The position numbers and the translations under genes are program-made. DNA of 64,000 bases from a virus: IMG/VR virus record IMGVR_UViG_3300030108_004141, positions 15,764 through 79,763 of that record, one strand, 5' to 3'. This document shows positions 1 through 39,382 of the stretch, piece by piece. Position 1 is the stretch's first letter; every line of letters begins with the position of its first letter. Under the pieces are notes generated by a model, which did not search any database, had not been told where the DNA came from, and saw only the letters and a list, made by a program, of their open reading frames with translations.

Positions 1-516
1 ATGGTTGAGAAGTTCAAAGGTCTGTTGTTCCAGATCGAACGCGACGCCAACGAAATTGCGAAGGCAACTCGTCGGGGTAAAGCTAACGTCATGATCTGCG
101 ATTCGGATGTAGCATCCGCGTTGTCGATGGCTGGCGTGCTTGACTACAGCCCTGCGATGTCGACGAACCTCAATGTAGACGACACGGGTAACACCTTCGC
201 TGGTGTTCTCAATGGTCGGATCCGCGTTTACATCGATCCGTACTTCAGCTCCAATGCTGGCAACCGCTACTTCACGGTTGGCTACAAAGGTGCGAGTGCT
301 TTCGATGCGGGTCTGTTCTATTGCCCATACGTGCCTCTGCAAATGGTCCGCGCCATCGGCGAAGATACCTTCCAGCCAAAAATTGGCTTCAAAACTCGAT
401 ACGGAATGGTCGCGAATCCGTTCGCTACGACCGATGCCGATGGAGTTATTGGTGGCTTCGACGGAAACAAAGCTAACAAATACTATCGTTTGGCTGCTGT
501 TTCAAACCTTATGTAA
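1..516 (+). CDS. gp23: Major capsid protein, C-terminal part (partial)
   Basis: T4 gp23 C-terminal motifs DAGLFYCPYVPLQMVRA and FQPKIGFKTRYGMVANPF. Confidence 0.97.
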   Translation: MVEKFKGLLFQIERDANEIAKATRRGKANVMICDSDVASALSMAGVLDYSPAMSTNLNVDDTGNTFAGVLNGRIRVYIDPYFSSNAGNRYFTVGYKGASAFDAGLFYCPYVPLQMVRAIGEDTFQPKIGFKTRYGMVANPFATTDADGVIGGFDGNKANKYYRLAAVSNLM

Positions 517-542
517 TAATAACCATAAGGCGAGCAAAAACT

Positions 543-574
543 GGGGAGGGCGAAAGGCTCTCCCCTTTTTTTTT
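543..574 (+). terminator. Rho-independent terminator after gp23
   Basis: GGGGAGGGC-GAAAG-GCTCTCCCC hairpin followed by T9. Confidence 0.9.
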
Positions 575-578
575 AAAT

Positions 579-611
579 TCCATTTACAATTAACGGTTGT
601 GACGCTATTAT
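579..611 (+). promoter_or_regulatory. Sigma70-like promoter, TCC(C/A) family
   Basis: TCCA-TTTACA-N17-TATTAT. Confidence 0.6.
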
Positions 612-640
612 GAGTAATGTCACGAGGGGTCATAATATAT

Positions 641-648
641 TATAAATA
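641..648 (+). promoter_or_regulatory. T4-type late promoter
   Basis: TATAAATA 22 nt upstream of the gp3 start. Confidence 0.85.
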
Positions 649-670
649 GAGTACACGACAGGATAGACAT

Positions 671-1228
671 ATGAGTACTCAAGAACAACCAGATAATCTA
701 AATTATCTTTCGCCACTCGGCTTTCGTTTTCAATTAAAGCGACTTCCGAATGTAAATTATTTTACACAATCTGTTACTCTACCGACTCTCACACTTAATC
801 CTATAGAGCAGCAAACTTCTCCGTTCGGTATCATACCCAGACCTGGGGATAGATTACAATATGATCCATTTACACTCAGGTTCCGAGTCGATGAAGACTT
901 AACTAATTATATTGAAATCGAAGACTGGCTGGTGGGCTTGGGTCATCCTGAAAGTTTTGAGCAAACGAAAGAGTTCGCTGAGTCTAATCCTTCACCCTTC
1001 GTAACTAAAGCACGAGGAGGTGGTGCAGCACAAGCATCTAACTATGTTTCTGACGCTACTCTTACTGTGTTGACTAGTCATAAAAATCCCCATATAAATA
1101 TATTTTTCCAGGATGTGTTTCCTATATCGCTAACAGAGTTGACGTTCGATGTGACTCAACCTGATTTAGAATATCTTGAGGCATCTGTAACATTTAGATA
1201 TAGGAAGTTCAAAACAGAAAGGATATAG
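671..1228 (+). CDS. gp3: Tail completion / sheath stabiliser protein
   Basis: NYLSPLGFRF...P.VNYF.Q..LP, F.VDEDL.NY, SDATL, FPISL..L.FD motifs; position after gp23 as in marine T4-like phages. Confidence 0.85.
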   Translation: MSTQEQPDNLNYLSPLGFRFQLKRLPNVNYFTQSVTLPTLTLNPIEQQTSPFGIIPRPGDRLQYDPFTLRFRVDEDLTNYIEIEDWLVGLGHPESFEQTKEFAESNPSPFVTKARGGGAAQASNYVSDATLTVLTSHKNPHINIFFQDVFPISLTELTFDVTQPDLEYLEASVTFRYRKFKTERI

Positions 1229-15760: not shown

Positions 15761-15791
15761 CCTTTACAAAAGTGGAACTATATAGTAGAGT
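15759..15791 (+). promoter_or_regulatory. Sigma70-like promoter, TCC(C/A) family
   Basis: TCCC-TTTACA-N17-TAGAGT. Confidence 0.7.
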
Positions 15792-30803: not shown

Positions 30804-31209
30804 AACTAGGAAAAAAGTTTTAATTGCTGCAGTTTGGATGCTCTATGATCAGCTTGGTAATAGAGTCGCACCGAATATCACATTAGAAATTGATCTAATC
30901 AAATTACTCATACATGATGAGGCAGTTTTCGGTGATTGTTTCGCTGCAGACAGTATGAGATACAACAGACCAAGATACTTTCAAATCAGATTGGATGCAG
31001 GTTTAAAACTGCCAGTTCTTCTTGAAACATTAGCGCACGAAATAGTTCATCTCAGGCAATACGCTAAAGATCAGCTGTATGAATACAGAAACGGAGACAG
31101 CCGATACGCTGGCAAACGATACCCAAAAGATTGTGAAGATCTACCATGGGAAGATGAAGCTCATGCACTGGAGCAGCACATTTATCACAGATACACTTCT
31201 CAATTATAA
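30736..31209 (+). CDS. Zincin-like metallopeptidase
   Basis: TLAHEIVHLRQY ... LPWEDEA. Confidence 0.75.
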   Translation: MTNIKSLTHTQVPEITVRGSNFKTRKKVLIAAVWMLYDQLGNRVAPNITLEIDLIKLLIHDEAVFGDCFAADSMRYNRPRYFQIRLDAGLKLPVLLETLAHEIVHLRQYAKDQLYEYRNGDSRYAGKRYPKDCEDLPWEDEAHALEQHIYHRYTSQL

Positions 31210-31232: not shown

Positions 31233-32186
31233 ATGGCGTTCAGCAAACCTGCTTTACAGGAACAGCTTAAACCGTTCGGAAAGCTCAAAGTTGAAGGAAA
31301 TCGATTCAAAGTTTTGTTGGCTGATGGATCGACTGCGGCACGCATAAATTTTCTTAACACTCTCCAAGATATATTACCCAACGCTGTAATTAAAAATGAT
31401 AATACAAATTTCAGCTCTGTAGGATATATTCAGGTCGACCAGTTTAAAATTGCAGGAAAACCAGCTAAGAGACAAGGGGCTGGCTCTGCTGGACTAAAAA
31501 ACGAAAATGTCTTTATCAACAGTATCAACAAAGCGATAAAAGATACAGGTGGTTCATTAGACGTTTGTTTGATCGGAGGAAATAATGTTAAGATCACGAT
31601 CAAGCAGGTTTCAAAGGCTGTTGAAATGGGTAGACAAACATCAGACTACGCTAAGTCTGATGTTGATTTAATCCACGAAAATGGGATATATAAGATATCT
31701 CTGAAACAAGATAATGCTGAAATGTGGGAGTCGGCAGACACTCGATTTGGTGAAATGATAAGAACTAAAATAGATGAAGCTCAAAAACAAGGAAAGGTTA
31801 AACTTGAGCCAATAATGGCTGCTGGTGGTTCTGTTAAAAAAAATCAAGGAAAGACCGTTGTAAAAATAGTGCCAGAAAGTAAAGTTAGAATGTCACTAGC
31901 AGAGCAAAAGAGTGTTGTTTTCGGTAATGATATAAAAGAGGGCAAAGGTGCTGTTGTAAAGAAGACATTTAGCACTGCTGACTTTACTTACGAAAATGAT
32001 TGTTTGTTTATTAAATGCTCGAAAATATATCGAAATATCCAAGATGTTAGAACTGCTGGTGAAACGCCAACAATATTAATACGTGCTGATTCTAACAGAA
32101 ACAGTAAAAAATTAGGAATTGCTGGTCTCAGAATCATAGTCAATGTGGAAAACAATCGAACCCGACGTGCATTAGATTTAACATAA
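31233..32186 (+). CDS. Putative PD-(D/E)xK-type nuclease-like protein
   Basis: G..NE helix, KSDVDL, ISLKQ resembling the E...PD...(S/E)xK arrangement. Confidence 0.5.
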   Translation: MAFSKPALQEQLKPFGKLKVEGNRFKVLLADGSTAARINFLNTLQDILPNAVIKNDNTNFSSVGYIQVDQFKIAGKPAKRQGAGSAGLKNENVFINSINKAIKDTGGSLDVCLIGGNNVKITIKQVSKAVEMGRQTSDYAKSDVDLIHENGIYKISLKQDNAEMWESADTRFGEMIRTKIDEAQKQGKVKLEPIMAAGGSVKKNQGKTVVKIVPESKVRMSLAEQKSVVFGNDIKEGKGAVVKKTFSTADFTYENDCLFIKCSKIYRNIQDVRTAGETPTILIRADSNRNSKKLGIAGLRIIVNVENNRTRRALDLT

Positions 32187-32227: not shown

Positions 32228-33454
32228 ATGCTTAAACTTCAAAGCTATCTCACCGAGCAAAAGAATGTTCACATGGAGCACCTCGAAGATCTGGTGCTGA
32301 ACAAAGGTATTGTCGGTGCACGTGAGATATTTGCATTCCTGACCTCACTTGGTGAGATGCTTGGCGGCAATAGCAAAAGCAGTATGAAAGCCACTGTCAA
32401 GTGGGATGGTGCACCTGCTATCTTTATGGGTGTTGATCCTGCTGACAAAAAGTTCTTCGTTGCGAAGAAAGGTTTGTTCAACAAAACTCCTAAGATGTAC
32501 AAAACGAATGCTGAGATCGATGCTGATATATCTGGCTCTCTCAACGCAAAGTTCAAAACTGCTCTCGCTGAGTTTGCGAAACTTGGTTTGAAGAGTGGTG
32601 TCGTTCAGGGCGATATGATGTTCACCAGTGGTGATGTCAATACCGAAACAATCGAGGGCAAAAAGTATTACACGTTCCAACCCAACACGATTGTATATGC
32701 AGTTCCTATCAATACACCTTTGGGTCGCCAAATCAAACGATCAAAGATTGGTGTCGTTTGGCATACAACATACGAGGGAAAAGATATTCAATCAATGCGT
32801 GCATCGTTTGGTAAAGGTATTGTTCGTCGGTTGAGAAAGAGCAGCTCGGTTTGGATGGATGATGCAACTTATCGTGATGTATCTGGTCAGGCGACTATGA
32901 CTGCTGCTGAAACGAAAGAGTTCCGTGGTCACGTTTCTGCAGCTGGCAGATTACTTCGCACGATTCCTACTAAAGCACTGGCGACGATAGCGGATAACGA
33001 ACAGCTCTTGATGATGGTCAAGACGTACAACAATACAAAGGTCCGAGCTGGTGAACCTATAAAAAATACAACTGCTCATGCTCGTGGTCTGATTACATAT
33101 CTCGACGCTAAGTTCAAAGCAGAGGAAGACAAACGTAAAACCGAAAAAGGCAAGCAAGGTGTTCGTGATAGAAAGAAAGAAGTCATGGGACCTTTGCTGA
33201 CTGTTCCTGTATCCCAGCTCGCTGCGATATTTGATTTCATGAATACCATTGTAGACGCTAAAGCAATCATCGTTCGTAAAATGAATCAGGCGGCATCGGT
33301 CGGTACATTCTTAAGAACGAAAAAGGGATTTAGAGTTACAGCACCTGAAGGATATGTTGCTATCGATAAATCTAAAGGGGGAGCAGTAAAGCTGGTCGAC
33401 CGACTAGAGTTCAGTCGAGCGAACTTTTCTGCCGATGTTCTTAAGGGATGGTAG
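32228..33454 (+). CDS. Conserved phage protein (DUF6267-like) with ligase-type nucleotidyltransferase motifs
   Basis: HMEHLED, TVKWDGAP (KxDG), QGDMMF, PEGYVA, KLVDRLEFS. Confidence 0.7.
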   Translation: MLKLQSYLTEQKNVHMEHLEDLVLNKGIVGAREIFAFLTSLGEMLGGNSKSSMKATVKWDGAPAIFMGVDPADKKFFVAKKGLFNKTPKMYKTNAEIDADISGSLNAKFKTALAEFAKLGLKSGVVQGDMMFTSGDVNTETIEGKKYYTFQPNTIVYAVPINTPLGRQIKRSKIGVVWHTTYEGKDIQSMRASFGKGIVRRLRKSSSVWMDDATYRDVSGQATMTAAETKEFRGHVSAAGRLLRTIPTKALATIADNEQLLMMVKTYNNTKVRAGEPIKNTTAHARGLITYLDAKFKAEEDKRKTEKGKQGVRDRKKEVMGPLLTVPVSQLAAIFDFMNTIVDAKAIIVRKMNQAASVGTFLRTKKGFRVTAPEGYVAIDKSKGGAVKLVDRLEFSRANFSADVLKGW

Positions 33455-33615
33455 AAAAGATAAAGAGCGGCGACAGATATATTGTAATGGTGAACGGTAA
33501 AATAATGTTTCATGGCAGCACCGAAAATGCTGCTAAGTTTGCTAAAAGTATAAATAACAGGATAGATAGATCTAATTCGGAGGAAAAAAATGCCATATCA
33601 GATTCTAACGCCTGA
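33448..33615 (+). CDS. Small hypothetical protein (55 aa, not in ORF track)
   Basis: ATG overlapping the upstream stop; MVEKIKSGDRYIVMVNGKIMF... Confidence 0.4.
   Translation: MVEKIKSGDRYIVMVNGKIMFHGSTENAAKFAKSINNRIDRSNSEEKNAISDSNA
33549..33556 (+). promoter_or_regulatory. T4-type late promoter
   Basis: TATAAATA upstream of GGAGG and ATG 33590. Confidence 0.8.
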
Positions 33616-34247: not shown

Positions 34248-34300
34248 ATGCGATAAGCTCAAGGGAAACTCGCATAGCAGTAAGTCTAAGGAAAACCTGC
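34248..34300 (+). promoter_or_regulatory. Tandem stem-loop RNA element with near-identical 16-nt loops covering the SD
   Basis: ATGCGA[TAAGCTCAAGGGAAAC]TCGCAT-A-GCAG[TAAGTCTAAGGAAAAC]CTGC-G-ATG. Confidence 0.65.
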
Positions 34301-34301
34301 G

Positions 34302-37196
34302 ATGAAGAAAGCAACGATAACATTTGGTAGGATGAATCCTCCTACCGTCGGGCATGAAAAGCTCGTTAACAAGGTTATCGCAGTTGCACGCACAAAACGA
34401 TCAGAACCTCGTGTATATCTTTCTCATACGCAAAATCCTAAGAAAGATCCCTTAAAGTATTCTCAGAAAATAAAAAATGCACGCGCTGCATTCGGCAACG
34501 TCGTGAAGCAATCAAACATAAAGAACATCGTTGGAATTATGCAGTCTTTGGAAAAAGAGGGCATAGAAGAGATCACGATGGTTGTCGGTTCTGATCGTGT
34601 ATCTAATTTCAGAACCTTCCTAAACAAGTACAACGGCAAAGACTATAACTTCAAAAAAATTACAGTGGTATCAGCTGGCACTCGTGATCCTGATGATGCT
34701 GGTGTTGCTGGAATGAGTGGAACTAAAATGCGTCAGTTGGCTGCAACTGGTAAAGAAAAAGAGTTCGCTGACGGTGCTCCCTCAGGATTATCTGTAGCAC
34801 AAAAGAAAACACTCTACAAGGATGTGAGAAAAGGAATGAACATACGAGAAGAAGTAGAACTGCTCGAGGCAGAGTTCAAAGATAAGGATCTTGAAAATTA
34901 TATCAAGAGAGCGCAATATCAAGATTTCGAACCTACAGTCGATGATGTTGTTTTAGCTAAACATATCTTTCAACAAGACGACGATGAACTCGAGGAAGAC
35001 GAAGAGGAATTAAACGAGAGAAAGCCACTCACGTTTCAGCAGAGACAAAAGATAGCAATTCGCATGAAGCGACTCGCTCCAAGAATGAAGCGTCTTCGAG
35101 CTATCAAGAAAAAACGTATGGCAACTCCCGATCGTCTTAAATATCGTGCGCGCAAAGCTGCTTTGAATATCCTTCGTCGCCGAGCTGCTGGCTCTCGTGG
35201 CGCGAAGTATGCATCTCTGAGCCGAACCGATAAAATTAATATCGACAGACAACTCAATAACAGGTACAAAGGTCCAGCACTTCGTAAGATAGTCGATCGT
35301 TTTTCTAGACGTATGTTACCAATGATTAGAAGAAAAGAAATGGAAAGACTGAAAAAAGCAAGGTCAGCTAAAAAAGAAGAAATCGATATTCGATTTGAAA
35401 CTTTTTTATCTGAAGAAACTTATAAGGGTGTTGATATAGGCAACTGGGTATATGAGGGTCCGAAAGATTTTGTTAAGAAACTGATTGATGAGTTCGGCAA
35501 GCCAGACTATATTGAAAAGAACCCAGAAAGTGGAGAGGCATACTCTGCTGTGTTCAAGAACATAGATGGTTTCGATTTCGTTCGTATAGTAGATTCAAAC
35601 ACTAATAAGCTGCACCCATATCCTGCAAAAATATATGTAGAGGGTGGTTTATATTTCAAAGTTCCACAAGAAATGGTTGGAAAGTTGAAGGAGGCATCCC
35701 CAACAATTATAATCGATGAACTGAACGGATTTGTTATAGGAAAATGTGCGAGCTTGACCATATGTGCCGCAACGTTGCAATTTGTTATCGATGCTGTCAA
35801 CGGTGACGCACCTGCGACAAGGGAAGAGTATGATAAGAGACTTCGAAAAATTATCGATGATGGTAAGACTGATCCAGAAATACCATGGTGGGAAAATAAA
35901 CTAAATGAATCGGTGATACTCGAAAAAGAAGACAGCGATATCGGCGATCGTAAAGGGAAACAACCAGCGCAGTATCACAGTGGCTTGAAAGTTTCAACAA
36001 AGAAAAAGAGAGACACTCAGTTTCAACGTCAGGCTAAAATGAAAGACGATGACCCACGTGCATATAAGAAGGCTCCTGGTGACTCCGCTAAAACTAAACC
36101 ATCACAATATACAACGAGGTACAAGCAAATGTATGGAGAGGATATCGATAAGGAGTTCGAAACATTCCTTGAGCAATCATCTGCGCTTGATAGACTAAAG
36201 AAGTTCGATAAGTCGCGAGAGGCTGCAGGAAAAAAGCCAATCTTCACTCCAAGTAAACCAACCACCTTTGTGAAGATGAAGAAACCTGGATTGATGACCA
36301 CAATGAATGTTCCTGACCATGAGGTTGACAAATATAAGAAGAAAGGTTTCAATGTACATAGTGAGGAAAATATCGATACAAAGTTTGAACAGTTTCTCGA
36401 GTACACAGTAACCCCATCGAGCCATTTAGCACCAACCTCTGCACCAAGAGATATCATTCCTTCGGTATTTGCTTCCGATGATGAGGATCCAAGTGACAAG
36501 GCTTCACGAAAGAGCAAGGTTGATATTTTGTTGCGTCTCGGTTTAGTGCCGAAAGATGAAATACAAAAGTATCGACGTGCGCTTCGTAATAGAGACACTG
36601 CTCTTAAGAATCCTGATTTGCGAAAGAAGCTCGATAATTTGCTAGACAAGCTGCTCGACTTTTCCACCAGCGACTCTGCTGTTTATCAGAAGTTACGCAG
36701 GTCAGTGACGCAAGAGGATATTGAGCGTCGTGCTGATGTCAGAATGATAAAGGTTAAGATGCCTGATGGTCGAGTGGTTTTCAAGAAAGATAGAAAAGAA
36801 ATCAAAGTCGGCGATGTTCGTGAGGATGAGGCTCTCATGAAAAAGCATGATAATGAAAAAGAGCGGTTGAAACTTCGCCATGCTCGAGAAAAAGGTGCGG
36901 CAAAAGTTCGTGCGATTCGGCGTGATAATTTGAAAGATGAGGTTGAACTTGATGAGAAAGCTCTGAAGGGTTTACAAAACAAAGCTGAAAAATCTGGTAT
37001 CCCATATGGTATCTTGAAACAAGTTTACAACCGAGGTATGGCTGCTTGGAAAACAGGTCATCGCCCAGGAGCAAGTCAGCAACAATGGGCGTATGCTCGC
37101 GTGAACTCTTTCATCACAGGTGGTAAAACTAGAACGACTGCTGATAAAGATCTTTGGGCAAAGGCAAGCGCAGCTCGAGCTAGGAAGAGAAAATAA
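34302..37196 (+). CDS. 964-aa multi-module protein: N-terminal HIGH-type nucleotidyl(cytidylyl)transferase plus several modules; putative polyprotein
   Basis: TFGRMNPPTVGHEKL, VVGSDR, MSGTKMR; repeated IDxxFExFL(S)E linkers; C-terminal VYNRGMAAWKTGHRPG..QQQWAYARVNSF module. Confidence 0.8.
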   Translation: MKKATITFGRMNPPTVGHEKLVNKVIAVARTKRSEPRVYLSHTQNPKKDPLKYSQKIKNARAAFGNVVKQSNIKNIVGIMQSLEKEGIEEITMVVGSDRVSNFRTFLNKYNGKDYNFKKITVVSAGTRDPDDAGVAGMSGTKMRQLAATGKEKEFADGAPSGLSVAQKKTLYKDVRKGMNIREEVELLEAEFKDKDLENYIKRAQYQDFEPTVDDVVLAKHIFQQDDDELEEDEEELNERKPLTFQQRQKIAIRMKRLAPRMKRLRAIKKKRMATPDRLKYRARKAALNILRRRAAGSRGAKYASLSRTDKINIDRQLNNRYKGPALRKIVDRFSRRMLPMIRRKEMERLKKARSAKKEEIDIRFETFLSEETYKGVDIGNWVYEGPKDFVKKLIDEFGKPDYIEKNPESGEAYSAVFKNIDGFDFVRIVDSNTNKLHPYPAKIYVEGGLYFKVPQEMVGKLKEASPTIIIDELNGFVIGKCASLTICAATLQFVIDAVNGDAPATREEYDKRLRKIIDDGKTDPEIPWWENKLNESVILEKEDSDIGDRKGKQPAQYHSGLKVSTKKKRDTQFQRQAKMKDDDPRAYKKAPGDSAKTKPSQYTTRYKQMYGEDIDKEFETFLEQSSALDRLKKFDKSREAAGKKPIFTPSKPTTFVKMKKPGLMTTMNVPDHEVDKYKKKGFNVHSEENIDTKFEQFLEYTVTPSSHLAPTSAPRDIIPSVFASDDEDPSDKASRKSKVDILLRLGLVPKDEIQKYRRALRNRDTALKNPDLRKKLDNLLDKLLDFSTSDSAVYQKLRRSVTQEDIERRADVRMIKVKMPDGRVVFKKDRKEIKVGDVREDEALMKKHDNEKERLKLRHAREKGAAKVRAIRRDNLKDEVELDEKALKGLQNKAEKSGIPYGILKQVYNRGMAAWKTGHRPGASQQQWAYARVNSFITGGKTRTTADKDLWAKASAARARKRK

Positions 37197-37528
37197 TGCT
37201 TTCGTTCGTTTCGTTCATAGAGTTAACAGAAGAGCCGAGGATTCCTAGGAAGCCTGGACAACCAGCTGGCTCAGACAAACACTCTGATTTGTATACGGAC
37301 GAAAATCCAAAGGGAACTATCAAGGGGTTGAAGTTTGCGACAACAGCTGATGCGAAAGCGAGTGTGGCTAAGATCAAAAAATCAGGTCGATCTCATGCTC
37401 ATAAAATACAGGCAGCGATAGCTATGGAGCAAAGAGCTAGAGTCATGGGTAAAACTGCAGCTGCAAACGTATATCGTGCATACATAAATAAGATGAAGAA
37501 GAAAACGAAAGAGATGCGAGATGGGTAA
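37196..37528 (+). CDS. Basic hypothetical protein, putative internal head protein
   Basis: N-terminus MLSFVSFIELTEE; SDKHSDLYTDENPKGTI.GL.F motif. Confidence 0.65.
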   Translation: MLSFVSFIELTEEPRIPRKPGQPAGSDKHSDLYTDENPKGTIKGLKFATTADAKASVAKIKKSGRSHAHKIQAAIAMEQRARVMGKTAAANVYRAYINKMKKKTKEMRDG

Positions 37529-37931
37529 AAAGCTAAAATCATTCAAGCAATACAGCAGCGGTGAGATGGGTATAGGTTCTGATGAACTAGCCAACAAATA
37601 CAAACGCGACACTCCTGGTCAAGAAGAGGGTCATGCTGTTGCTTCTTTTTCAGCAGATAAACCTGAGCTTTCGCCAACTGCCAGAGAGTCAGGATTGTAC
37701 ACTGCTAATGAAGCTGGACCTTGTTGGGATGGTTATAAGCAACTCGGTATGAAAAAAGGTAAGAGTGGAAAACCTGTGCCGAACTGTGTGAAAGAATCAC
37801 AGCCCAATAAATTTGATTCAAGCACTGTTCTTATTTTCCGTAGGAATCCAAACACAGGTGAAATGAAAGAGATGCGCATCGATAAAATAAAAGTCAACGA
37901 ATATCTATCGAGAGGATGGGCAAGGAAATGA
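37521..37931 (+). CDS. Hypothetical protein, putative internal head protein
   Basis: N-terminus KLKSFKQY; GPCWDGYKQLGMKK...VPNCV module. Confidence 0.65.
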   Translation: MGKKLKSFKQYSSGEMGIGSDELANKYKRDTPGQEEGHAVASFSADKPELSPTARESGLYTANEAGPCWDGYKQLGMKKGKSGKPVPNCVKESQPNKFDSSTVLIFRRNPNTGEMKEMRIDKIKVNEYLSRGWARK

Positions 37932-38287
37932 AAACCTTCAGGCAATATGTCTTAGAGCAAGCAGAGCCGTGTTGTGAAGGTTGTGCTGATGATGACATAA
38001 TCGAGCAAGCTGAGTATCAGGGTCGGAAAGTAAAACTTAACAACCCAACTCGCTCCGATAACCCCAAGTCCAAGCGCATGGTTTACGTGCGCAATGATAA
38101 GGGAAACGTTGTTAAGGTTTACTTCGGCGACCCTAATCTCGAAATCAAGCGCGACGATCCTGCTCGTCGTAAAAATTTTAGAGCGCGGCATAACTGCGAT
38201 AACCCTGGACCAAAATATAAAGCACGTTATTGGTCTTGCAAATTTTGGGAGAAAGGCAAGTCGGTCACCGATTTGATGAAAGGCTGA
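37928..38287 (+). CDS. Basic hypothetical protein, putative internal head protein
   Basis: N-terminus MKTFRQYVLE; AEYQGRKV.LN.P, FGDP, RRKNFRARHNC, ARYWSC. Confidence 0.7.
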   Translation: MKTFRQYVLEQAEPCCEGCADDDIIEQAEYQGRKVKLNNPTRSDNPKSKRMVYVRNDKGNVVKVYFGDPNLEIKRDDPARRKNFRARHNCDNPGPKYKARYWSCKFWEKGKSVTDLMKG

Positions 38288-38544
38288 TGTACAAATCACT
38301 AGAAACTACAATCAAAGAATTAAATCTCAAAGAAGATGGACACGATGATGTCGCTTCTATGAAAAATAAAGTTGAGATCGGCTTGAAGGCTTTTGAAAAA
38401 ATGAAAGCTGCATTAGATAAGTTGCCTGATGAGGGTAGCATTCCTACATGGTGGACTAATAAAGTCGCAACGGCTGTTGCTCGCATCGACGATATGTCAG
38501 ATTACCTAGATACGAAAATGAATGGAGAGAAAGATGAGGAATAA
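38287..38544 (+). CDS. Hypothetical protein, putative internal head protein
   Basis: LKE-DGHDDVAS ... PTWWTNKVA motif. Confidence 0.6.
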   Translation: MYKSLETTIKELNLKEDGHDDVASMKNKVEIGLKAFEKMKAALDKLPDEGSIPTWWTNKVATAVARIDDMSDYLDTKMNGEKDEE

Positions 38545-39382
38545 CAAAGATTTCGGTTTGCCTGACAGCTTACTCGATGCTGTTCGTCAGGTCGTAGAAA
38601 AGAAACTAGATCCGGTTGATCCTAAAGAACTCAAAGGGAAACACGCAGATCGCAAGGATAAAGATATCGATAACGATGGTGATGTAGATTCTACTGATAA
38701 GTTTTTACATCGACGTCGGAAAGCTATTACGAAAGCCATAGCGACGAAAGAAGCAATGCAAAAGCCATATGTTTCTTCTGATCGTGATGGTCACCATGTC
38801 ATGACTGGTTCTGGTAAAATTTCAAAGAGCTTTAAAGATACAAAATCTGCAGCTGCTCACCTCAAGAAAAATTTTACTAAACTTCAAAAAGAAGATGTGA
38901 ATGAGGGTTACGAAGATACAGTCATGAAAGCTCTCAAGAAAAAACGTATCGATGGTCGTTTTGACAAAGGAGATCTTTTTGTAAGCAAGCGTGATGTAAA
39001 GGCTGCAAGAGATGCGCTCAAAAGAGACTTCAACATCAAACAGCTTCCAAAAATTGTAGGCGAAGATGATGCTTTGATTGGAGTTGCGAAAAAGCTGAAG
39101 AAAGCTAGTAAAGCACATGCTGGTCAAGCAGATAAAATTATGAAACATGTCAAAGATATGGGCGAGGCAGCTAACCCTGCTCAGCAAGCAGCGATCGCTA
39201 TTGCCATGAAGAAGGCTGGTAAGAAACCTAAGAATGAAGGTGCTATGAAGCGCATGGCAACTGGCGGTGGTATGAAAACTTTCAAACCTAAACCACCTGC
39301 CAAGTCGGAGGAAAAGAAAGGTAAGAAAGATATGATTGATGTCAAGCCATCGATGGAGGCATCAGAACTGCCAAAAAAGTAA
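38534..39382 (+). CDS. Lys-rich multi-module protein, putative internal head protein; possibly extended by -1 frameshift to 39492
   Basis: KLDPV..., DKDIDNDGDVDSTD.FLH.RRKAI, AANPAQQAAIAIAMKKAG modules separated by xxE sites. Confidence 0.7.
   Translation: MRNNKDFGLPDSLLDAVRQVVEKKLDPVDPKELKGKHADRKDKDIDNDGDVDSTDKFLHRRRKAITKAIATKEAMQKPYVSSDRDGHHVMTGSGKISKSFKDTKSAAAHLKKNFTKLQKEDVNEGYEDTVMKALKKKRIDGRFDKGDLFVSKRDVKAARDALKRDFNIKQLPKIVGEDDALIGVAKKLKKASKAHAGQADKIMKHVKDMGEAANPAQQAAIAIAMKKAGKKPKNEGAMKRMATGGGMKTFKPKPPAKSEEKKGKKDMIDVKPSMEASELPKK

Follow-up and report, generated by a model that had tools for sequence, protein, structure and literature searches.

Leader-like motifs between the modules of a 964-aa protein from a T4-like marine myophage suggest a chain of fused cargo cassettes

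Locus and protein architecture

The DNA analysed here is a stretch of 64,000 nucleotides (the window; positions 15,764 to 79,763 of IMG/VR virus record IMGVR_UViG_3300030108_004141), part of a 79.7-kb viral record estimated to be 44 % complete. The source virus is a T4-like marine myophage; among isolates it is closest to three Kyanoviridae, namely Pelagibacter phage HTVC008M, Methylophilales phage Melnitz and phage C48C1. The subject of the analysis is an open reading frame (ORF) of 964 amino acids (aa) in which three copies of a short motif, resembling the capsid targeting sequence (CTS) of phage T4, lie between distinct modules (Table 1).

An identical copy of the 964-aa protein is present on 5 contigs, and 926-aa orthologues with 91–93 % identity are found on many independent contigs. 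An assembly artefact as the origin of the ORF was therefore ruled out. A search over 5.8 billion proteins returned 1,902 relatives of 568–1,418 aa, with varying architectures, some of which include a P-loop kinase or a Cu/Zn superoxide dismutase (SOD). Megablast of the 30–42 kb region against isolated phages gave no match. The protein begins MKKATITFGRMNPP, straight into the enzyme core, and has no in-frame start further upstream. Immediately 5′ of the start codon are two adjoining short inverted repeats (ATGCGA…TCGCAT and GCAG…CTGC, 34248–34301), the second of which spans the AAGGA ribosome-binding site. As no T-run follows, they are not a terminator; they may control translation of the ORF.

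Table 1. Features of the 964-aa ORF and its surroundings, by position in the window
Feature	Position	Residues (aa)	Strand	Remarks
DUF6267 protein	32228..33454		+	408 aa; starts MLKLQSYLTE; Pfam PF19782 E 3e-105; upstream locus member
TATAAATA, T4-type late-promoter box	33549..33556		+	34 nt upstream of the gene preceding the 964-aa ORF
P0001, putative multi-cassette cargo fusion	34302..37196		+	ORF of 964 aa
Cassette 1, cytidylyltransferase-like (HxGH-type, 'TVGH') nucleotidyltransferase domain	34302..34937	1-212	+	No N-terminal leader here
Degenerate acidic leader of the next cassette	34938..35018	213-239	+	…LEEDEEELNE; L-E-E, L-N-E
Cassette 2, Arg/Lys-rich helical module	35019..35375	240-358	+	Net charge +36; phrog_23027
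Motif 1, EEIDIRFETFLSE	35376..35414	359-371	+	F4, F7, L8 and E10 in T4-CTS numbering; canonical L-x-E (L-S-E)
Cassette 3, ~160-aa alpha/beta domain	35415..35924	372-541	+	Ends in L-N-E and I-L-E
Conserved basic module	35925..36137	542-612	+	…QPAQYH…KPSQYT…MYGE
Motif 2, EDIDKEFETFLE(Q)	36138..36173	613-624	+	F4, F7 and L8 kept; Gln at position 10
Cassette 4, short basic module	36174..36365	625-688	+	Helix plus beta-hairpin
Motif 3, ENIDTKFEQFLE(Y)	36366..36401	689-700	+	F4, F7 and L8 kept; Tyr at position 10
Cassette 5	36402..36899	701-866	+	Disordered Pro/Ser stretch, helical basic module and 38-aa beta-hairpin insert
Cassette 6, DUF5824	36900..37193	867-964	+	Degenerate leader before it (EVELDEKAL, L-D-E-K)
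Three small genes	37196..38287		+	Start MLSFVSFIELTE, MGKKLKSFKQY and MGKEMKTFRQYVLE; read as unfused cassettes of the same system

Cassette 1 matched PHROG 3041 'cytidyltransferase' (E 1e-79) and was modelled by AlphaFold2 with a predicted local distance difference test score (pLDDT) of about 88; its 'TVGH' motif is invariant among homologues. The match to Pfam PF01467 (E 0.008, 16.8 bits) was below the cut-off of 21, and the enzyme domain had no NCBIfam match and no solved relative in the PDB by sequence search. The 'HIGH transferase' of the initial annotation corresponds to this cytidylyltransferase-like domain.

The cassette 3 domain, modelled alone from aa 372 by AlphaFold2, reached a pLDDT of 93 and a predicted template modelling score of 0.89. 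It forms a family with 163 relatives at E<=0.001 among cluster representatives, occurring alone and in many fusion contexts. The domain matched no Pfam family, and tblastn against isolated phages gave no match. Foldseek gave nothing at E<=0.001, the best being the T4 MotA C-terminal domain (E 0.03, TM 0.3–0.4), and VIA-align gave a best Z of 5.4, within noise, to YbjN/type-III-chaperone-like folds (root-mean-square deviation 4.3 over 108 residues). The basic module that follows (aa 542–612) occurs in HTVC008M gp130, Melnitz gene 18, C48C1 CDS 89 and nearly all homologues. DUF5824 was assigned by Pfam PF19141 (E 6e-20, 72.2 bits against a cut-off of 25, aa 845–951). A search for shorter stand-alone forms of aa 613–866 gave only contig-end fragments or internal Met starts and was uninformative.

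The three internal motifs

Three copies of [ED]x-I-D-x-x-F-E-x-F-L are present in the 964-aa protein, at the positions where the initial annotation had placed them, and no further occurrence of 'ID..FE.FL' was found in the six frames of the window. A looser form of the pattern is expected at 0.0009 copies per shuffled protein and three copies arose in 0/20,000 shuffles, which ruled out chance or low complexity. The copies share 7–8 of 12 residues pairwise but only 21–25 of 36 bases, and up to 5 identical residues are written with different codons; the motif has therefore diverged as DNA and been kept as peptide, as first proposed. A recent duplication of the DNA was ruled out, given the few bases in common and the different modules that the copies head.

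In the AlphaFold model of the full-length protein, the motifs are short helices within stretches of pLDDT <50 (aa 356–391, 606–627 and 687–737), which separate the confident domains; the domain after motif 1 starts at aa 372. By charge calculation the modules are basic and the leaders acidic. The motifs thus sit between distinct modules, as had been claimed, and the linkers do not fall inside folded domains.

Leaders of once-separate genes

To follow the gain and loss of modules, homologues were cut at the motif and the pieces compared with each other. Most of 120 homologues have 1–4 copies of the pattern [IVLM]-[DN]-x-x-F-E-x-[FY]-[LI]-x-E. Six close homologues lack the 160-aa domain, precisely behind motif 1, and P0048 has it behind another copy of the motif. 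DUF5824 stands directly behind an intact leader in P0054, P0113 and P0072, with [LI]-x-E-K conserved at the border, and kinase and SOD cassettes are present in other homologues. The 38-aa beta-hairpin insert of cassette 5 (…MIKVKMPDGRVVFKKDRKEIKVGD…; 36717–36830, aa about 806–843) is absent from the 926-aa orthologues and is not flanked by a leader; distant homologues carry the same mini-module elsewhere, and P0277 starts with it, again without a leader. The expectation that modules insert and delete at the linkers was therefore borne out for the 160-aa domain, DUF5824, kinase and SOD, while the insert shows that some module changes occur away from leaders.

Five cassette types were found as stand-alone genes that start with Met and a decapeptide aligning in register with the internal motif. 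For the 160-aa domain, the stand-alone N-termini MLDFRTYITE and M-IKFSSYIKE align residue for residue with internal DIRFETFLSE. The Arg/Lys-rich module is a separate gene in C48C1 (CDS 88, MLSFKQFVSE) and in Melnitz (gene 17, MKKFSELTSE); both N-termini, together with the intact leaders (EEFEMFLEEMELTE) of homologues, align with aa 213–239 of the 964-aa protein, where aa 225–240 have a pLDDT <50. Stand-alone DUF5824 (C48C1 CDS 90) starts MITFKKYLEE. For the kinase, MIPFILKE of HTVC008M gp129 corresponds to internal AFESYLEE, and for the Cys-rich module, MKTFRQYVLEQAEPCC (MKTFRQYVLE) of the window gene at 37916 corresponds to internal AFESFLEDEHKDCGTPECC. These alignments show that the motifs are N-terminal leaders kept from genes that were once separate, or still are in other phages, in line with the initial proposal of a gene fusion in which leader peptides were kept.

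Among stand-alone forms of the 160-aa domain, an upstream leader was found in 10/84 usable representatives compared with 0.9 expected (P 3e-8). As only a minority of representatives have it, the leader is not part of the domain, and this combination of enrichment and minority occurrence suits a tag that is portable and lineage-specific.

Resemblance to the T4 capsid targeting sequence

The T4 CTS is MKTYQEFIAE (PMC8442874). Suppressor analysis showed that targeting depends on residues 4 and 7, whereas residues 8 and 10 govern processing; Asp at position 10 stops processing but leaves targeting intact, and the T4 prohead protease gp21 cleaves after L/I-x-E (PMC9026906). The leaders described here have F/Y/W at position 4, F/Y at 7, L/I/V at 8 and Glu at 10. 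The likeness of FExFLxE to the T4 peptide, noted at the outset, holds for the leader at these four mapped positions (aromatic 4 and 7, L/I 8, E 10); of the three internal motifs, motif 1 alone has Glu at position 10.

The targeting positions are Phe in all three motifs, and among 47 non-redundant internal copies position 4 is F in 46/47 and position 7 is F/Y in 36/47. N-terminal leaders were gathered from all proteins and loci at hand with position 10 left free in the pattern. Glu was found at position 10 in 22/31 of these, or about 22/24 once obviously spurious hydrophobic ORFs were excluded, and position 9 was almost never acidic. In the 79.7-kb record alone the enrichment of N-terminal leaders was weak (4/102 genes against about 1 expected, P 0.016).

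Head genes, late promoters and neighbouring genes

The same record encodes a gp21-type (Peptidase_S77) prohead protease (gene at G000:C1:12991-13647; PF03420 match at G000:C1:13030-13500, E 3.6e-33), together with a prohead core protein and a gp22-type scaffold (phrog_207, E 3e-76; phrog_237 (scaffold), E 2e-80). Among the sizeable proteins, L/I-x-E sites are densest in scaffold and protease, at 3.6–3.7 per 100 aa compared with a genome mean of 1.26, as expected if the T4 specificity is conserved. Between the prohead core and prohead protease genes, upstream of the window (G000:C1:12069-12695), a 208-aa gene starts MSKSFSQLVE; this protein has the same type of leader and occupies the position of T4 gp68.

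The late-promoter box TATAAATA occurs 14 times on the + strand of the record and 0 times on the - strand, including sites immediately ahead of the genes for prohead core, scaffold and major capsid protein. In the window, boxes at 31205, 33549 and 39484 lie just upstream of genes at 31233, 33590 and 39554, which would suit late transcription of the putative cargo locus.

The order of the locus, namely primase-helicase, a 317–445-aa gene, ligase-like DUF6267, cytidylyltransferase, small modules and virion structural protein, is kept from cyanophages to a soil Stenotrophomonas phage. The DUF6267 orthologue in Stenotrophomonas phage DLP_6 starts MMKFTQFLAE. The DUF6267 protein of the window starts with the leader-like MLKLQSYLTE and contains a KxDG motif (VKWDGAP) of the kind found in covalent nucleotidyltransferases (ligases), and PHROG 455 unites the DUF6267 family and the cytidylyltransferase in one profile, indicating that the two are fused in some phages.

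In Melnitz gene 18 and in P0060, the modules of the three small genes downstream of the 964-aa ORF form part of the cytidylyltransferase protein. Small genes at 37196–39382 encode CW-x-GY…VPNC, Cys-rich EYQG…RHNC and D-x-D-G-D…RRKAI mini-modules, which Melnitz gene 18 and metagenomic homologues likewise have joined to the cytidylyltransferase. The CWKGYK… mini-module forms part of S-SZBM1_139, a virion-detected protein. A P-loop kinase of the Zeta_toxin/AAA_33 type is encoded by a separate gene adjoining the cytidylyltransferase in HTVC008M (gp129) and is joined to that enzyme in a single protein in many metagenomic relatives (P0052, P0060, P0097). One relative also has the Cu/Zn superoxide dismutase at its C-terminus.

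Relatives in virions

Cyanophage orthologues of cassette 1 start MKKFSAFL[KS]E or MRFRQFIIE. One of these, S-SZBM1_140 (MRFRQFIIE), was detected in purified virions together with its neighbour S-SZBM1_139 (PMC9146016). S-CREM2 ORF154, a cytidylyltransferase/NMNAT-like relative, was found in the virion proteome of that phage (PMC10665884), and cytidylyltransferase/NMNAT-like proteins were reported from the virion proteomes of further cyanophages (PMC9602691).

Interpretation and alternatives

On balance we lean towards reading the 964-aa protein as at least five or six small cargo cassettes joined head to tail, which are separate genes in relatives and partly in the window, with each cassette having brought its own 10–13-residue leader, a marine T4-like counterpart of the T4 CTS.

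Several observations weigh against this. The T4 experiments tested the CTS at the N-terminus only (PMC9026906), and here the 964-aa protein has no N-terminal leader, although the orthologues of cyanophages, HTVC008M and Melnitz do. Internal copies have Glu at position 10 in 25/47 and at position 9 in 23/47. They also have a conserved [IVL]-D 2–3 residues ahead of the first Phe and are acidic where N-terminal leaders are basic, and about 1/4 of the homologues listed have degenerate acidic joints only. By the T4 rule (L/I-x-E) motif 1 (L-S-E) is the only canonical site, as F-L-E-Q of motif 2 and F-L-E-Y of motif 3 do not fit, and the total of 12 L/I-x-E sites in the protein is average (8.4 expected). 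The presence of the protein in virions would be predicted from the proteomes of relatives, whose authors cautioned that abundant soluble proteins may co-purify (PMC10665884).

Since Glu10 is no commoner than Glu9, the cleavage determinant is not specifically conserved in the internal copies. Set against about 22/24 in N-terminal leaders, 25/47 with Glu10 suggests that the internal copies have been selected mainly for targeting. Our reading is that the targeting part has been under selection everywhere, and that the cleavage part has been kept strictly at N-termini and relaxed internally.

This bears on how the protein would be processed. The initial annotation had proposed that the linkers are protease-cleavable joints, which fits the T4 rule for motif 1 and seems less likely for motifs 2 and 3; L/I-x-E sites at 230, 237, 369, 534, 539 and 883 do lie at cassette borders, among them its further candidates L-N-E, I-L-E and L-D-E, in a protein whose total of such sites is average. 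If all three motifs were obligatory cleavage sites, the protein would be a true polyprotein, fully resolved into single modules. Each cassette border does bear a leader or an L/I-x-E, and the ~30 A portal would admit small folded pieces more readily (PMC9026906). Full resolution nonetheless appears improbable to us, as even Asp at position 10 stops processing in T4 and as every orthologue seen has Tyr at position 10 of motif 3. At the position of motif 2, close orthologues have L-S-E, L-D-E or L-E-E. From the distribution of sites, partial processing would instead be expected, with a cut after aa 371 and probably further cuts at 232/239, 536/541 and 885, and motifs 2 and 3 are probably targeting anchors only. 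Any such cleavage, like entry of the 964-aa protein into proheads, is a prediction from sequence. A complex prediction of the leader (aa 350–385) with the scaffold protein gave no verdict, neither for nor against.

The features peculiar to the internal copies, namely [IVL]-D before the first Phe and Glu after, are absent from the T4 CTS. Together with the predicted helicity of the motif, they could indicate a short helix that docks onto something else than the prohead core, for instance a host factor or another phage protein encoded at the locus, with its repetition serving avidity or the recruitment of several copies. The likeness to the CTS would then be convergent, both being acidic amphipathic helices. 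We regard this as much less likely than the CTS reading, since the motif is homologous in exact register with N-terminal leaders ending in invariant [LIV]-x-E, an end which is a protease determinant and needless for docking, and since the gp21/gp22-type head module is encoded in the same genome.

It is also possible, though unlikely in our estimation, that the fusion is real and the leaders are now mere flexible helical joints in an uncut cytoplasmic multi-domain enzyme or nucleic-acid-binding protein, with no capsid loading through the motifs. Such a protein could act, for example, in nucleotide, NAD or RNA-repair chemistry with the ligase-like DUF6267 and the kinase. The missing N-terminal leader, the lack of the T4 processing residue in motifs 2 and 3, the average density of L/I-x-E and the fusion or adjacency of ligase-like, kinase and nucleotidyltransferase modules in many phages would all agree with this, and the virion detections could be carry-over. 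However, nearly all of the 47 diverged internal copies have retained Phe at positions 4 and 7 between variable flanks, which exceeds the needs of a passive linker, and the same peptide, with invariant [LIV]-x-E, heads many unrelated stand-alone proteins. The late promoter boxes common to the locus and the head genes, and the detection of relatives in several independent virion proteomes, also argue for capsid loading.

Proposed mechanism and implications

Under the preferred reading, as cassettes with CTS-like leaders, the locus would be transcribed late, as the observed promoter boxes suggest. While the prohead assembles, the internal leaders would tether the protein to the gp22-type scaffolding core, with the aromatic residues at positions 4 and 7 binding the core; L/I at position 8 and Glu at position 10 would allow the prohead protease to remove the leader. 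The gp21-type protease would trim exposed L/I-x-E sites at the borders proposed above, with motifs 2 and 3, which have no Glu at position 10, probably serving in targeting only. The basic pieces would stay on the DNA once it is packaged and be carried with it into the next host, as the T4 system and the virion proteomes of relatives suggest.

More tentatively, and with rather less confidence than in the fusion itself, we propose a Lego-like system in which any leader-bearing small protein can be loaded into the capsid and leader-plus-domain cassettes are freely fused, split and reordered, with internal leaders acting as multiple scaffold anchors and some as protease joints. If so, a single gene would supply the host infected next with a whole set of enzymes and DNA-binding modules (nucleotidyltransferase, kinase, ligase-like, SOD), and the recurrence of 'metabolic' enzymes in cyanophage virion proteomes would be explained. 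Several cyanophage papers have reported cytidylyltransferase/NMNAT-like proteins and kinases in virions and left open whether they are truly packaged. A T4-type leader on virion enzymes would explain how they are packaged and would offer an easily recognised sequence signature for predicting which proteins abundant ocean phages (pelagiphages, cyanophages and OM43 phages) inject. Internal repeated leaders would widen the concept of the T4 CTS from an N-terminal tag to a cassette joint and would show phage cargo repertoires evolving through fusion and fission. The fusion-chain architecture suggests how T4-like marine phages build and reshuffle their injected protein set. In the literature searched, 'capsid targeting sequence' and 'cyanophage' occurred together in one general T4 review only.

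Comparison with known systems

The closest functional parallel is with the internal proteins of T4. The leader of IPI, IPII, IPIII and Alt is likewise ~10 residues long and is aromatic at positions 4 and 7, with L/I at 8 and Glu at 10, the last of these kept in motif 1 here; in both systems it is portable and found on unrelated, mostly basic cargo. Both systems have a gp21-type protease and a gp22-type scaffold in the genome and late promoter boxes, with relatives detected in virions. They differ in that the leader here is internal and repeated in one long ORF with none at the N-terminus, that the internal copies are acidic with an additional [IVL]-D and in half of cases no Glu at position 10, and that the cargo includes enzymes (a nucleotidyltransferase, and in homologues a kinase and Cu/Zn SOD); packaging and cleavage are here predicted from sequence.

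T4 gp22, gp67 and gp68 and the ejection or inner-body proteins of phiKZ, 201phi2-1 and SPN3US are also prohead-protease substrates, with several cuts after Glu and propeptides that act as targeting signals. These are scaffold or inner-body proteins with long propeptides, and not chains of leader-bearing cargo domains.

Among marine phages, the cyanophage 'cytidyltransferase' or NMNAT-like virion proteins (Syn9 gp184, P-SSM4 gp155, S-SZBM1_140 and S-CREM2 ORF154) have a homologous nucleotidyltransferase domain (39–47 % identity) and are encoded at the same locus after the primase-helicase, with a DUF6267 gene upstream. These proteins are 360–385 aa long with a single N-terminal leader and no internal ones, whereas in the window protein the N-terminal leader has been lost and five more cassettes have been added. 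The closest isolates are represented by HTVC008M gp130 (596 aa), Melnitz gene 18 (650 aa) and C48C1 CDS 89 and 90, which have the same neighbourhood with cytidylyltransferase, basic module and DUF5824, but cassette sets and orders different from those of the window protein. The Arg/Lys-rich module and DUF5824 are separate genes in C48C1, the former also in Melnitz, and the Cys-rich modules are fused in Melnitz and separate in the window.

Overall, the system probably works like the internal-protein/CTS system of T4 and probably descends from the same mechanism. What differs from T4 is the arrangement of leader-plus-cargo cassettes in one ORF, with leaders that are internal and repeated and with enzymes among the cargo.

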